From a virus (taxonomy: Duplodnaviria > Heunggongvirae > Uroviricota > Caudoviricetes), in the IMG/VR virus record IMGVR_UViG_2617270975_000009, positions 1 through 21,415 of that record: a stretch of 21,415 nucleotides of DNA, one strand, 5' to 3'. Below, one piece after another: positions 12,001 to 18,000 of the stretch (the first letter of the stretch is position 1; every line of letters begins with the position of its first letter). Position numbers: made by a program.

Positions 12001-15000
12001 CTTGAATCTATAAGCGAGAGATACACCCGCTTGCTTCAGCTTTATGTAAACAAAGACAGAGAAATGAGCTTGATAAAAATATCTGATTTAATGAGTAGAG
12101 ATTTATAGCAAGCAAAATCCTACGTAAACGTTTTAAGTAAATTTCGCGATTTCCGCTTTGAATACGCTACTGTGTATTTCAAAGCGGATAATCTTCTCAA
12201 AAAAATATTTTATTTTTATCCGCTATCACCCATTCACCGGTTTGTTTAATCTCCTTTCTGTCTACTGATGTCCATTAAAGAAGATGACAGAATATAGGAG
12301 TAAACATGTCTCAATCATTTATTCGTCTTTCTGAGGTTCAACGCCGTACTGGTTACAGCAAAGCGTGGATTTATCGGCTCATCAAAGAACAGCGATTCCC
12401 TCAATCTGTAAAGATTGGAAGCCGATCAATTGCGTTTATTGAAAGTGAAATTGAAGAATGGATTAATCAGCGCATCGCTGAGTCGCGTGGCGAGGTAGCG
12501 TAATGAATAAGAAAAACCGCCCATTACAGGCGGCTAATTCAGATATTCGCGTATCTGATGTTACGCCCCTTACAAAATCCCTTCAAGCACCAAAGCGCAC
12601 ACCGAAAAAGCATCGTGCCAGAGTCTATATGCTGCGTACTGGTATAGAGGGATGGACAGAAAATGACATTCTTCGCTACTGCCGTCTGTCTTCTGGTCGT
12701 AACTATGCAACAGAGTTAGAACGCCAGCTTGGAATCACTCTGGAGCGTATCGACGAAAAGAATCCTGATGGTATCGGAACACACCTTCGCTACCGTTTCT
12801 CCTGCCGTGGTGATGTTCTGAAAGTGATCACTCATATTAACCATCTTGCGAACATAAATGATCACAACGGACTTTCTCAGCAGGAAATTGCCGACATTCT
12901 GAAACTCTACCCGGACGCGTTTAACGCCGCTTAACGGAGACTGAAAATGAACATCGAAAAAAGCAGATTAATTTCTGAGGCCGCCCCTCATCTGAACGCC
13001 TCTCTGAGCACAATTAACGGTAATGAATTTGCCGCAATTGTCCCGGTTATTCCTGGTCATATCGGTGGGCGTGAAACCAATATTGTTAGCGCAAAAGCGT
13101 TACACAAAGCGTTGGGCGTGGGAAAAGACTTCTCTACATGGATCACTGATCGCATCTCTGAATATGACTTCACCATTGGGCACGATTACTCAGTCCATAA
13201 AACTATTTCCCCAAATTTGGGGAAAAGCCCGAATGGCGTGGCTTACAGAAAGATTAAGCAGTCTGGCAGACCCGGCAAAGACTATCTGTTAAGTGTCGGA
13301 ATGGCGAAAGAACTGGCAATGATCGAACGCAATGATCAGGGTCGCGCTATCCGCCGTTATTTCATCCAGTGCGAGGAAGAATTACAGCGTAGCGTTCCTG
13401 AAATCGCCGCCCGCTATCGTCGCCAGCTAAAAGCCCGTATCAGTGCCGCAAACAACTTTAAGCCAATGTGCGATGCGCTGAATATGGCCCGTGCCGAGCA
13501 GGGGAAAACGACGCAGCAACACCACTACACAAACGAGAGCAATATGATTTCTCGTATCGTTCTTGGTGGGCTAACTGCTAAGCAGTGGGCGCGGATAAAT
13601 GGCTATTCTGGCGAACCTCGCGACCATATGAACGCAGAACAACTTGAGCACCTCTCATATCTCGAAAGCACCAATATCACGTTAATTGATATGGGCATGG
13701 AATATGAGCAGCGCAAAGGAGAACTCCCCCGCCTGTCGCAACGCTGGCTCGCTAAGCGTCTGGAGGTGGTCCATGTTTAAGCCGACAGGAACACCACAAC
13801 CTCAAAAACGCTACAAGGATGCCCACGGAGCACTCGTTACTGTCGAAAGCGTGTCTCACAACCGAGTGACGTTTTATCGCGACGGGTATCAATCGCCATG
13901 CGTACAACCGCTGGCGCGCTTCATGAAGGAGTTCGCGGAGGTTAACAAATGCTAACCGTCCAGAAGAAGATATTTTCACTGGCTGGTATGTCGCCAAAAT
14001 CCAGCAATATGACAGCAAAGTCTGGCATTAATACAGCAGATACAAGCAAAGTTTATCATTTTCTGGTGGTGGGAGCGGATGCCTTAACTATGTCAGAAAT
14101 TACGGTCGATGGTGTTAGCGTTGAGAAGGTCGGCGGCTGCGCCAGAGAATTTCTGGTCGTAGATGGCTTTCTCTGCTCGCGTAGTGACTCCACAAAAACC
14201 TTCGTCCACACGCGCGACGTTAACGAAATGAGCGCGATGTATTGTGCATCTGGTGCTTCCAATAGTGAGTTTTCGGAGTCCATAAAAAAGAGCTTGCCGT
14301 TATGCGGCAACACGGTTTATGGTTATAAGGCACCTCATAAAACGGGTGCCGGGTTTCGCAGCCCGGAAATGTACGAGGCGACACATGACGCGCCGAGCGT
14401 CTTTTTTTGTGCCGTTAGCCAGACTCACACTTTTTTCAGTGATGCGGTTATAATCCGCGTCGCTTGCAAAATTATGGTGGGCTGGACAGGGCAGCCGAAA
14501 GGCTGGCCGGTTTCCTTGTACGCCGGTACTGCGAACTCTGTTCAGTCCACCACCAGCGAGTTTCGCAGCTCCGGTGGTGGGAAGAACTCCCAGTACAAGG
14601 AGGCTGCCACATGCTGGCTACTACCCCTACCCAAAAACCGCAATTTATCTGGATTATCGCCGCAGTTCGCCGCGATTGCCCGACAATTACCGCCAAAATT
14701 CATCATATTGCTGCCGAGTCTGAACGCGATGCTCGCCGTTCTCTGGTGCGCGATCACATCTGCTTTTTTGCTGGTCGTATCCGCATGGAGGTGGCACATG
14801 ATTAAAACCTACGATGTGCATATGGATCCCCTCGAACGCACAAGCCAGATCATCACACTGACAGAAGTGATTAACGACATTCTGGTGAGCAACTCTCCCT
14901 CACGAGACGAAAGACTGAAGGCGTTACTCGCGATATTGGATCTCGCCGTTCGTGACGTTCATTTCCTGCTGGAAGGTGGCGAAATGCCAGGAAAAACGGG

Positions 15001-18000
15001 GGCAACCAATGAATAACTCAATTAATACCCCTCGCCTTACGTCCGCACTTCAATTAATCGAGCAAGCAGCGGCTGTCCTGGTTGCTGTCAGTCTTTCGGC
15101 TGAAGAAATGGACGCTACTGATGTCGTGGATGCGATTAAAGCGTGCTCATCTTTGGTTAACGATGCCCGTGCCGAGCTGGTAATTCTTGGGGGTGAAAAA
15201 TGAATATCAACTTAATTTATCGTCATCCGTGTGAGCTGGAAATTGAATCATTGCTGGGGCGTGAAGAGCCATATCCAGACACATTCACTCCCGCAGATTG
15301 CGCGACTGAACGGCTTACCAGAGCGCGCACAGGTCTGGTTCATGTGATGAATGAGATTGTTCCCTCGGTGGGCGGGGAACAGGCGACAGTAATCAATAGC
15401 TGGCTACAAAAAGTTACCTCCCTGATAGATATCGGTTTAATCGATGTGGAGAGTGCGAAATGACCAACATCCAGCTCATTGAAGCGCAATGTCGCATCGA
15501 ACAGGTTCAGACTGTTTTAGGGTTCTGGCTTGAAGGGGCCAGCCCCAGCAACAGAGACAAGTTAATGATTGGCGCGGTTATGTCACTGCTCAATGGCGTA
15601 CCAGAAGCTATTCAGGAAGCGGACGAATTGTTGGGCAAATATGAGTTACAGAATCATTCAGGCGAGGCGAAACATGAATAATTTCTTAACTTTCCATACA
15701 GAAGCAACGCCTGACGGCGTAAACATCATGTACCGCAGCAACGATGGCATGACAGAACGCGTTGAGGCCGTCTCATATATTGATGCCGTAAATCGTCTGG
15801 ATGCCGGGGATTATGACGATAAACCAGATGAAGGTATGTCAATACATCTCGCTATTGCCGATGGCGGCAACCAAGGATATTTCGATTACACATCACAGCA
15901 TAACGTCATTATGTGGAGATGGCTGATCGCAACAGTATTCATGCTGGAAATGAGAGAGGAAAACGGCACTGTCAGCATCATTGATGATACTGGCAATCCT
16001 TCCGAAGTGGCTGTTTATTCCAACGGCATCGTCGCCATGCCGCTGTATCCAGTAGCAGAGCGCCTCGCTATGGCAAACAACATTGAGGGAGCGATGATAG
16101 AACGTTTTGGCATCGAGTCTGGCACAGAACGCGCCATCATTTTCTACAGAGCCATGATGGATGTGGAACAAGGAGCACTGACTCCATTTGGTCGTGAAAC
16201 GCTTGCTGAACTTCACAACAGCTTTATAGCTGAACTGAATGAAAACGGCATGCCAGCGGAACCAGTGACGCACTGAGGATGGAGCCATGATTACTAAAAA
16301 TTTCCGACTGAATGCGCTGGCAAATAAGTATGCGTCGGCACTGTATAACCACATTACCTCCACCAGCGGCGGGGACTATTTCATGGTTGATGCGGACGGC
16401 GAGGCCGTACGTGTGGAAATCGTTAATGGAGTAAAAGGCGTTCGCAGCCTGATCGATAGCTACACACTGGCAGCCATGAAAGTGTTCTACCCGCAGTGGG
16501 AAACCGTGGGGATCGAGCTTCTTGAGCGTTGCGTCACTAAGGACGGATTGACTGACGTCGGGCGTGAGATATGGCAAAGCATGGTTAATGACATGGGCGC
16601 AACTGTAGCGGGAGGTTCTCATGCGTGAAAATGCAGAAATGGCGCTTAGCTCCGCAATCGGAGAGCAGGTGGCAAAGATTGCTGGTGCTGTGTGGATTCA
16701 TAACCTTCATTCTACTGGTGAAGAGAAAATGGCAATTCAGACGCCAGAGGGACGCACCATTACTACATCTCTGAAGCCGTCAGATGTTTGTGATCTGATT
16801 TGCGCATTCATGTACCCAGCAATGAGGACTGTCCACGGCGATAAGTGGAAACTTGCGACAACCGCTGAATTTGATATGTGGCTAAACAATGATGGCATGC
16901 TGACTGATTACGGAATAACCAAGTGGCAGATGCTGGTTAGCCATATCGCAAACGCTATAGACCACGTGGGGTACGGTGATGCGAAACATTGATCTTATCC
17001 GTCAGGTTATCAGTGCGTCTGAAAACAACTGGCCTCATGTGCTGGGCTGCCTGAACATAAATGTCCCTGACTCTCCGCGCCGTCATGCTCCCTGCCCTGC
17101 ATGTGGGGGCAAAGATCGATTCCGGTTCGATGACAACGGGCGCGGTAGCTTCATCTGTAATCAGTGCGGCGCTGGTGATGGGCTGGATTTAATTAAACGC
17201 GTAAATAACTGCGACACAACAGAGGCGGCGCTTCTTGCCGCTGATGTTCTGGGTATTGATTACCGGACAACGGAAACACCAGAAGCCACCAGCCAGAAAC
17301 GGGAACAACTGGAAACCGAGCGCCAGCGACGCGAACAGGAGCGCCTGAAAAGGGCAGAGAAGGACGAACAACAAAGACGGGATACGTTTTCCCGTCAGTT
17401 TGATGACATGCGCAGAAAGGCTGTAAACGGCAAATCTGATTATCTGGTTGCGAAAGGGGTAGGTGATTTTACATTCCCCGTGTTGCCCGATGGATCTCTG
17501 TTGCTGGCGCTGGTGGATAAATCCGGCGCAGTCACAGCAGCACAGACTATTACATCACATGGTGAAAAAAGACTCCTGACAGGTTCAGCAAAGCGGGGGG
17601 CATATCACGCCATAAACGCGCCAGAAACAACACAGAGCATCTTAATCGCAGAAGGGCTGGCAACGGCATTATCTGCCCATTTAATTCGTCCAGAGGCGCT
17701 GACAGTGGCGGCGATTGATGCCGGGAACCTGTTATATGTCGCCCAGGTACTGCGGGATAAATTTCCTTCAGCACAAATCATCATTGCTGCGGATAACGAC
17801 CACAGCGAAGGAAGACAAAACACGGGGAGAATAGCAGCAGAAAAAGCAGCTTTATCTGTTTCTGGATGGGTGGCATTACCCCCGACAGATCACAAAGCAG
17901 ACTGGAATGATTACCACCAAAAACACGGCATTAAATGCGCCACAGAAGCGTTCAATAAGTCAATGTACCAACCACAGGGTAATGGCGTGAAACAGGAGCC

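Follow-up and report, generated by a model that had tools for sequence, protein, structure and literature searches.

In RNA immunity cassettes of the P4/P1 type, an RNA is processed from the leader transcript by RNase P, and its pairing leads to Rho-dependent termination. In the immI locus of P1 and P7, a C4 RNA is followed by icd, whose ribosome-binding site is the antisense target, and then by ant; short complementary boxes, which vary from one heteroimmune relative to another, determine the specificity of immunity. The immunity region of P4 has the nested genes eta and kil together with PLE, seqA, the CI RNA, seqC and the Rho-dependent timm (Forti et al., 1999, as summarised in PMC10111431), and, according to the same summary, eta has been shown experimentally to be translated (PMC10111431). 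In Gifsy-1, orf45 is translated and is needed for downstream gene expression, a stop codon in orf45 lowers anrP activation, and IsrK has been reported as a trans-activator, not as an antisense target (PMC4825925).

Here we describe a related locus in a stretch of 21,415 nucleotides (the window; positions 1 to 21,415 of the Caudoviricetes record IMGVR_UViG_2617270975_000009). The window contains a P4-type RNA immunity cassette, placed in the early operon of a P4/PICI-like element that is integrated in E. coli. The operon is ordered integrase, AlpA, AntA, DUF4222, cassette, small genes and primase, and an open reading frame (ORF) of 355 codons runs through the whole cassette. The features discussed below are as follows.

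12947-13780, upstream of the cassette: AntA (antirepressor homolog)
13773..13955, + strand: DUF4222 gene, directly 5' of the long ORF; stop TAA at 13953-13955
13949..15016, + strand: long 'eta-like' ORF, 355 codons, from ATG at 13949 to TAA at 15014-15016
13949..14329, + strand: N-terminal part of the long ORF, 127 codons, lineage-specific and weakly constrained
14294..14323, + strand: candidate constitutive internal promoter, -35 TTGCCG, 18-nt spacer, -10 TATGGT
14330..14407, + strand: isrK-type leader RNA, related to the P4 seqA region, Rfam RF01394, 69 bits (gathering score 50)
14370-14378, + strand: box A in isrK, TGTACGAGG, complementary to the C4 loop
14387..14408, + strand: intrinsic terminator that ends the short isrK RNA, with hairpin GACGC-GCCGA-GCGTC at 14387-14401 and T7 at 14402-14408
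14470..14557, + strand: C4 antisense RNA (equivalent of P4 CI), Rfam RF01695, full model, 81.1 bits against a gathering score of 45
14511-14522, + strand: C4 specificity loop, TTTCCTTGTACG
14593..14603, + strand: box C (seqC-like), GTACAAGGAGG, complementary to the C4 loop and including the icd Shine-Dalgarno (SD) sequence
14611..14805, + strand: Icd/Kil-like cell-division inhibitor gene (icd), 64 codons, AAGGAGG at 14597-14603 before its ATG
14798..15016, + strand: 72-codon gene in the long-ORF frame at its 3' end, SD sequence GGAGGTGG at 14787-14794

Results

Extent and Setting of the Long ORF

At the base composition of the window, the probability that a given frame stays open over 355 codons is about 6e-9, which bears out the view of an earlier note on this DNA that the frame is unlikely to have arisen by chance. 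RefSeq labels the ORF 'ash family protein', and PF10554 matches its residues 124-232 with 99.2 bits against the Pfam cut-off of 26. The start signals indicate that the ORF is translationally coupled to the preceding DUF4222 gene: its ATG overlaps the DUF4222 stop codon in ATGCTAA, a GGAGG SD sequence lies at 13937-13941, and in 101 of 115 relatives a start codon of the ORF adjoins the stop codon of an ORF upstream.

The N-terminal part gave no Pfam match. The first 126 residues, used as a query against 5.8 billion proteins, retrieved only 38 homologs, nearly all of them close, so that no domain could be assigned. The pN/pS of this part is about 0.48, its length ranges from 17 to 159 codons across relatives, and its sequences are unrelated between loci. 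As fixed offsets misaligned some loci upstream, the pN/pS control on DUF4222 was unusable, and the controls relied on were icd and the 72-codon gene. A search for tRNA and tmRNA inside the long ORF frame found none.

RNA Elements and Genes Inside the Frame

The middle third of the long ORF consists of two RNA genes with a promoter and a terminator, and the last third covers two better-supported genes. The candidate promoter sits just 5' of the 5' end of isrK and is the analogue of P4 PLE. Its -35 and -10 hexamers are conserved across diverse loci. The approximately 65 nt immediately before isrK are also conserved, whereas the remainder of the N-terminal part is not. With 8 of 12 consensus matches, it fell below the threshold of a simple promoter scan and was missed; the sole + strand prediction of that scan, at 14121-14150, is not conserved beyond close relatives. 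The terminator-like hairpin followed by seven T residues, which the earlier note had placed inside the frame, is present, and the T7 run occurs in 113 of 121 unique relatives. Variants with T6 or T8 are mostly compensated elsewhere, and protein databases also contain T6 and T8 variants in which the long ORF is truncated at the run. The Rfam matches to isrK (including the terminator) and to C4 had been missed by the earlier note.

In 149 of 150 loci, the C4 match lies directly 5' of icd. A conserved AUG at 14474, near the 5' end of C4, is in the long-ORF frame and encodes M176, an invariant column. Among 107 unique loci there are 36 loop alleles, and the C4 loop, the isrK box and box C co-vary. 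The duplex formed with box A has a mean length of 8.3 nt within the same locus and 4.7 nt across alleles, and the corresponding values for box C are 10.0 nt and 5.6 nt. On this sequence evidence, the co-varying loop and boxes identify a P4/P1-type RNA immunity system. The sequence elements of such a cassette were found, namely the C4 fold, a leader with box and terminator, co-varying boxes and an Icd/Kil gene first downstream.

The Icd-like gene matches NCBIfam NF033153 with 70 bits, and its product is 38% identical to P4 Kil. It starts at 14611, whereas the long-ORF codon starts at 14612, an offset of one base. Of the 155 loci in the sample described below, 53 share this offset and 102 have icd in frame, as in P4. 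Because of the offset, the ORF of the window passes through icd in the +1 frame and fuses with the gene that follows, which preserves an unbroken chain of overlapping frames. Here the start of the 72-codon gene overlaps the icd stop codon (ATGATTAA), and its own stop overlaps the ATG of the following gene at 15009; small genes with no known function and the primase lie downstream of the cassette. Both small genes are thus as the earlier note had them, one in another frame behind AAGGAGG and one in the same frame behind its own SD sequence.

Conservation of the Open Frame

The frame from isrK to icd is open in 152 and broken in 3 of 155 loci, against 0 and 1 open loci for the other two frames; this sample was anchored only on Icd, and because the loci are related, the counts exceed the number of independent events. 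An ORF that starts 5' of the internal promoter and runs through the cassette was found in 151 of the 155. The distance between isrK and C4 takes 10 values between 98 and 185 nt, all of them 2 mod 3. The spacers (38 clusters, about 705 codons per frame) contain 15, 0 and 22 stops in the three frames, the value of 0 being that of the long-ORF frame. The +1 frame of icd is open in all 38 out-of-frame loci compared with 7 of 24 comparable in-frame loci, and synonymous resampling predicts an open +1 frame at only about 0.12-0.15. Taken together, these comparisons argue strongly that the 355-codon frame is real and kept open by selection.

The earlier note had proposed three explanations for the frame, and none of them fits, although its view that this is not an ordinary protein gene stands. 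A lost stop codon is contradicted by the relatives, in which no stop lies near 14380-14460 and the long-ORF frame is open in 118 of 121 unique cases. Programmed frameshifting or read-through is rejected because the frame is continuous, with no stop to read through and no change of frame. The third proposal, a leader open by accident, conflicts with the spacers that vary by multiples of three and avoid stops, and with the icd +1 frame that is always open.

Selection on the Amino Acid Sequence

The codon periodicity suggested as a check was not found along the frame. Variability of the C4 columns is flat across codon positions (entropies of 0.69, 0.70 and 0.72) and tracks base pairing, with 0.54 at paired and 0.96 at unpaired positions. 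Islands with about 95-98% identity elsewhere differ greatly in the hypervariable centre of the ORF, and in close relatives the variable sites are spread evenly over codon positions with no third-position excess. Across icd, purifying selection is seen in the icd frame (0.50) and none in the long-ORF frame (1.24); the 72-codon gene has a pN/pS of 0.23 in the long-ORF frame. These patterns indicate that the amino acid sequence encoded across the RNA part and icd is without codon-level constraint. The earlier note would have given up its view for orthologs that share both the uninterrupted frame and a protein conserved throughout. Orthologs do keep the same 355 codons uninterrupted, at about 89-97% DNA identity, but the protein is not conserved throughout, its centre varying without a codon pattern.

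The PF10554 match spans exactly isrK, C4 and the SD sequence of icd. Tested as a protein domain, Phage_ASH passes the gathering cut-off, but the third-position freedom is not seen. As judged from the alignments, the Pfam 'Ash' domain is the long-frame translation of the RNAs, with conservation of the RNA type and not of the protein type. PF10554 matches P4 eta and not epsilon, whereas one satellite survey used it as a marker of P4 epsilon.

Discussion

The closest counterpart of this locus is the P4 immunity region. In P4, the isrK and C4 models also match, both inside eta; eta and the long ORF read isrK and C4 in the same frame, the motifs DAP.VFF and GQP.GWPVS are common to both, and P4 Kil is homologous to the Icd-like product of the window. 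Like eta, the long ORF starts 5' of the internal promoter and is, as its start region indicates, coupled to an upstream gene, and both operons end in primase. However, kil is the in-frame C-terminal part of eta, whereas icd in the window lies one base out of frame. The N-terminal part in the window is also longer (127 codons) and unrelated, the ORF is preceded by AntA and DUF4222 and not directly by an alpA homolog, and psu, sid and delta are absent from the window. The cassette is therefore a variant of a known system, and an out-of-frame icd with the ORF fused to the next gene is what differs from P4.

As in P1 and P7, icd follows the C4 RNA, which is predicted to target the ribosome-binding site of icd, and the cassette has matches at about 70% identity in related plasmids and phages. 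In contrast to P1 immI, where the antirepressor gene comes after icd and is coupled to it, AntA lies upstream of the cassette; small genes of unknown function and a primase follow the cassette, and the long ORF is outside the classical description of P1. Gifsy-1 likewise has an isrK sRNA with terminator followed by a C4-type RNA, and orf45, which begins at the same conserved AUG, corresponds to the long-ORF frame across C4. In Gifsy-1, however, orf45 stops where the antirepressor gene begins, and isrK and C4, 102 nt apart, are not joined by a continuous frame; continuity is therefore not universal for C4 modules.

Considering these likenesses, the long ORF is likely the counterpart of P4 eta within an RNA immunity cassette, selected to stay open, with coupled translation letting transcription from upstream through. 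If the cassette works as in P4 and P1, transcripts that read through the terminator would give rise to the C4 RNA, which would block icd translation and trigger premature termination, leaving the downstream replication genes silent. Ribosomes arriving from upstream, as suggested by P4 eta and Gifsy-1 orf45, would translate through the cassette, melt the structures of the terminator and of C4 and protect the RNA against Rho, so that transcripts from an upstream promoter would escape immunity and reach the replication genes. The frame is thus probably kept open so that upstream ribosomes can carry transcription through the immunity switch; we infer full-ORF translation, Rho dependence and the upstream promoter alike. 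More tentatively, in about one-third of Icd-linked cassettes, that of the window among them, the frame may be kept for translation alone, as a 'ribosome track' that crosses promoter, terminator, RNAs, icd in its +1 frame and the next gene and overrides RNA immunity. 'Ash' would then be the shadow of the RNAs, and the T7 run could act as a slippage on/off switch.

One alternative is that the frame belongs to a non-coding leader and is open by chance or through RNA conservation. Translation would then be confined to icd, the 72-codon gene and possibly a short gene upstream, and the name 'ash family protein' would be an artefact of annotation. In favour of this, the Ash match coincides with isrK, C4 and the icd SD sequence, codon periodicity is absent, the C4 of the window's allele is stop-free in all three forward frames, the N-terminal part is almost without relatives past close homologs, and PGAP gives two different annotations to identical DNA of this region. 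We nevertheless consider such a leader unlikely, since the ten spacer length classes share a single phase, poorly conserved spacers have no stops in the long frame against 15 and 22 in the others, the icd +1 frame is open in 38 of 38 out-of-frame loci, far from the expected 12-15%, the ORF start with its GGAGG overlaps the upstream stop, and P4 eta and Gifsy-1 orf45 are both experimentally translated. In the opposite case, the ORF would encode a working protein in which 'Ash' is a truly folded domain (a regulator of the Bro network), the DNA would be dual-coded with the RNAs and the amino acids would matter; this seems to us distinctly unlikely. The conserved residues are RNA features, with the T-run giving FF and the C4 stems giving GQP.GWPVS; variability follows base pairing and not codon position, the centre is hypervariable between islands nearly identical elsewhere, selection across icd acts in the icd frame only, and the N-terminal parts, from 17 to 159 codons, are unrelated between loci. 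These points outweigh the 99-bit PF10554 score, the match of 33 of 33 diverse ORFs, the eleven invariant columns, the N-terminal pN/pS of about 0.48 that hints at weak protein constraint, and the treatment of Ash as a protein domain in the literature.

The invariant AUG at 14474 raises another alternative, in which a shorter ORF resembling Gifsy-1 orf45 is translated on read-through transcripts from the isrK promoter and opens downstream ribosome-binding sites, the part before C4 being incidental. Translation of orf45 from the same AUG and the reduced anrP activation when orf45 carries a stop codon are in its favour, but it leaves unexplained the open frame, the phase-preserving spacers and the coupled start 5' of C4. 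In the window, the ORF from 14474 overruns the icd start out of frame, and termination-reinitiation coupling to icd is therefore impossible. As a full account this is very unlikely, although it is compatible with the eta-like explanation as an extra layer.

The eta-like explanation has consequences beyond this element. Comparative evidence here indicates that translation itself, and not the product, can be what an ORF is conserved for, and the out-of-frame icd with the ORF fused to the next gene is a frame arrangement that can be tested directly. A Pfam Ash profile signals an RNA immunity cassette and not a protein function or P4 epsilon, so satellite surveys that used this profile need rereading. 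For this locus, the annotation should list isrK, C4, icd and the 72-codon gene, and the long ORF should not be listed as an ordinary protein. The same explanation accounts for a very common annotation, as many enterobacterial prophages, satellites and P1-like plasmids carry a gene named 'ash family protein'; a match to the cassette region is present in about half of complete E. coli genomes.

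Composition of the Long Frame

The 355-codon frame to which an earlier note had drawn attention is present on the + strand, running from ATG at 13949 to TAA at 15014–15016, and its length is indeed unlikely to be due to chance (p ~6e-9 for a given frame to be open over 355 codons, from the base composition of the window). The terminator-like hairpin described inside it was found as GACGC-GCCGA-GCGTC at 14387–14401, followed by T7 at 14402–14408. Both of the small genes said to overlap it were also recovered: one preceded by AAGGAGG (ATG 14611, 64 codons, end 14805), in a frame other than that of the long ORF, and one preceded by GGAGGTGG (ATG 14798, 72 codons, end 15016), in the same frame. 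The "terminator" proved to be the 3' end of an isrK RNA, one of several elements of a phage P4-type immunity region located in the frame.

Features in the long ORF (13949–15016, + strand)
14294–14323: promoter-like −35/−10 pair (TTGCCG, 18 nt, TATGGT), just 5' of isrK, conserved across loci
14318–14644: match to Pfam PF10554 "Phage_ASH", long-ORF residues 124–232
14330–14407: isrK RNA, inside the long ORF (Rfam, 69 bits, above the gathering score)
14370–14378: box A, in isrK, TGTACGAGG
14470–14557: C4 antisense RNA, inside the long ORF (Rfam, 81 bits, above the gathering score)
14511–14522: loop of the second C4 hairpin, TTTCCTTGTACG
14593–14603: box C, covering the icd Shine-Dalgarno sequence, GTACAAGGAGG
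14611–14805: Icd-like gene (icd), 64 codons (NCBIfam NF033153, 70 bits)

The product of the Icd-like gene could be aligned with Kil of satellite phage P4 at 38% identity, and the PF10554 match takes in precisely isrK, C4 and the icd ribosome-binding site. At its start, the long ORF overlaps the upstream stop codon (ATGCTAA, with a GGAGG Shine-Dalgarno sequence), and in 101 of 115 ORFs of relatives the start codon directly adjoins the stop of an ORF upstream that is 50 codons or longer. Among 5.8 billion proteins, only 38 proved related to the N-terminal 126 residues, and almost all of these are close relatives. This N-terminal part shows a pN/pS of ~0.48, and in other loci its place is taken by unrelated sequence of 17 to 159 codons. 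Within it, 107 nt (14097–14203) are 86% identical to DNA of E. coli CUVET19-1969 (locus L161, 1201–1307), where the counterpart lies on the opposite strand inside a truncated "DNA-packaging protein" pseudogene of a P22-like prophage; because of this match, the sequence suggests a mosaic origin for that part of the long ORF.

Conservation of the Open Frame

With frames numbered relative to C4 model position 1, 152 of 155 loci (118 of the 121 unique ones) had no stop in the window's frame between the isrK start and the icd start, against 0 and 1 of the 155 for the other two frames, counts that are not independent trials as the loci are related. Since shared ancestry could explain part of this openness, features not fixed by RNA conservation were examined. 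Ten different isrK-to-C4 distances occur, from 98 to 185 nt, and every one is 2 mod 3 (153 of 155 loci). Taking one representative of each of 38 clusters, the three frames of the poorly conserved spacers contain 15, 0 and 22 stops over ~705 codons each. Variants of the terminator run with T6 or T8 are mostly compensated elsewhere, the frame still being open in six of eight. The start codon abutting an upstream stop, described above, is a further feature of this kind. Comparison of the loci in this way demonstrates selection for an uninterrupted long frame.

The frame is broken in three loci, and protein databases hold T6 and T8 variants that truncate the long ORF at the terminator run; such truncating variants may represent decay, sequencing error or a slippage switch. 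Four database proteins (P0001, P0002, P0003 and P0005) are conceptual products of these variants, the run in the window being T7 (14402–14408).

Two Architectures Around icd

As judged from its pattern of variation, the long frame is unlike a protein gene. In close relatives, the sites that vary fall equally on all three codon positions; the column entropy of C4 is 0.69, 0.70 and 0.72 at codon positions 1, 2 and 3, and 0.54 at paired versus 0.96 at unpaired positions. PF10554 was matched by 33 of 33 diverse ORFs, which have no other recurring domain in common.

The icd gene lies in frame with the long ORF, as its C-terminal part, in 102 loci, and one base out of frame in 53, the window included, where the long ORF passes over icd in the +1 frame. 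In 50 of these 53 the long ORF runs on for another 172–868 nt after icd has ended and enters the gene that follows. Stops are absent from the +1 frame of icd in all 38 unique out-of-frame genes and in only 7 of 24 in-frame loci with an Icd at least 55% identical; random synonymous codon choice would be expected to leave a fraction of ~0.12–0.15 stop-free. Across icd, purifying selection is confined to the icd frame (pN/pS 0.50, versus 1.24 in the long frame), and the 72-codon gene shows constraint in its own frame, identical with the long frame (0.23). The long ORF in the window is thus composite, made up of a weakly constrained on-ramp, RNA genes, an alternative icd frame that is only kept open, and a real small gene. 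To our knowledge, an out-of-frame icd with an always-open +1 frame and fusion to the next gene has no earlier description. The sole related literature found is a general remark that relatives of CI and seqA sit inside "Bro network" genes of satellites (PMC10111431).

Identity of the Ash Domain

PF10554 is the translation of immunity RNAs in the eta frame. It matches P4 eta (L010, 7888–8812, − strand) over the seqA-to-CI region and not P4 epsilon, which matches PF25738. In a survey of P4-like satellites, PF10554 served as the epsilon marker (PMC8628076); because it matches eta and not epsilon, the marker in that survey actually reports the immunity cassette. For most E. coli genomes, RefSeq has the whole frame as an "ash family protein", and identical or equally open DNA elsewhere (the window versus loci L001, L002 and L007) is split into a pseudo-ash fragment and an Icd-like gene. 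The latter version leaves the 72-codon gene (14798–15016) without annotation.

Variation of the RNA Immunity Boxes

In a sample of 150 loci anchored only on the Icd-like protein, of which 80 came from viral contigs and 70 from the genomes of a wide range of enterobacterial genera, a C4 match lay directly 5' of icd in 149. Among six E. coli copies, roughly half of the positions in 14350–14605 differ, the flanks are ~95–98% identical, and at least four alleles of the immunity region were found, a hypervariability that is consistent with diversifying selection on immunity specificity. Near-full-length copies in E. coli number 481. The isrK box, the loop of the second C4 hairpin and the icd Shine-Dalgarno box change together between alleles. 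With 36 distinct C4 loops among 107 unique loci, the loop pairs on average over 8.3 nt with box A and 10.0 nt with box C of its own locus, versus only 4.7 and 5.6 nt across alleles. This three-box complementarity is the seqA/seqB/seqC scheme of P4 and equally the a/b-site arrangement of P1.

Compared with shuffled sequence, the entire leader is much more stable when folded (z = −5.3), and box A is paired with the C4 loop in its minimum-energy fold. Just 3' of C4, GGTGGTGG (14573–14580) is complementary to CCACCACC (14547–14554) in the closing stem of C4, on its 3' arm, and before the transcript is processed this pairing could give rise to an alternative structure. The GGTGGTGG stretch is kept in relatives, and its translation in the Ash frame reads "TTSEIGVSGG".

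Relation to P4 and Gifsy-1 and a Proposed Model

The cassette belongs to the known P4/P1 family. The Rfam C4 and isrK profiles both match P4 itself, and they have been reported to detect relatives of P4 CI and seqA (PMC10111431). In the account of Forti et al. (1999) as conveyed by PMC10111431, a constitutive promoter lies inside P4 eta and its transcripts end early through interactions of CI and seqA, and full-length eta is translatable only from the upstream late promoter and is coupled to an alpA homolog. By analogy, the long ORF probably works like P4 eta. P4 kil is the in-frame C-terminal part of eta, whereas icd in the window is out of frame, so in-frame nesting, a defining trait of eta, is not found here.

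In Gifsy-1, orf45 is the same frame over C4: it coincides with the Rfam C4 match and has the conserved C4 AUG as its start codon (L162, 34073–34329, − strand). In contrast to the window, Gifsy-1 lacks a continuous frame from isrK to C4, and by this example continuity may have been lost in those C4 cassettes of lambdoid phages that lie ahead of ant or rha genes. A processed species of ~80 nt, STnc1160 (= orf45'), has been reported in Gifsy-1 (PMC4825925), and it is probably a C4-type RNA, because orf45 coincides with the C4 match. The Rfam family RF03163 (c4-a1b1 targets) overlaps isrK in Gifsy-1. It was also reported that orf45 is translated and that a stop codon inside it lowers expression of the downstream antirepressor (PMC4825925).

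The cases of P4 eta and Gifsy-1 orf45 are the grounds on which we propose that ribosomes pass through the long ORF. Ribosomes would enter at 13949 from the AntA-DUF4222 message and translate through the terminator and C4; this translation would suppress intrinsic as well as Rho-dependent termination, and the ribosomes would pass on to the gene that begins at 15009. When the long ORF is counted, the overlapping translated frames form an unbroken chain from AntA to the primase; without it, an untranslated gap of 650 nt would be left. Of the elements of this model, the following are established at the sequence level: what the parts are and in which order they stand, the mutual complementarity of the three boxes, a conserved putative internal promoter, a coupled start codon and selection for an unbroken frame.

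Surrounding Element

The element consists, in order, of an integrase (9870–11084), int-alpA RNA, DUF6387, AlpA, an unknown gene, AntA, DUF4222, the long-ORF region, a chain of small overlapping genes and a primase (16976–19735). The int-alpA RNA (Rfam RF02996, 46.7 bits) lies at 11145–11212, between the integrase and DUF6387 genes. No tRNA gene was found within the window; a tRNA-Thr adjoins the same island in other strains. Two IS3-family ALIL frameshift pseudoknots, both on the − strand (1–90 and 20998–21114), bracket the window, one of them being cut by its edge, and a transposase ORF lies at 20182–21072. The primase ORF is intact in the window (919 codons), with the IS downstream, and that of the related locus L001 is truncated by IS1203. 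Adjoining the IS, 786–5444 carries P22-like DNA-ejection genes (DUF2824, P22_gp7, injectosome translocase and a 701-codon ORF) and seems to be what is left of a prophage, with no relation to the island.
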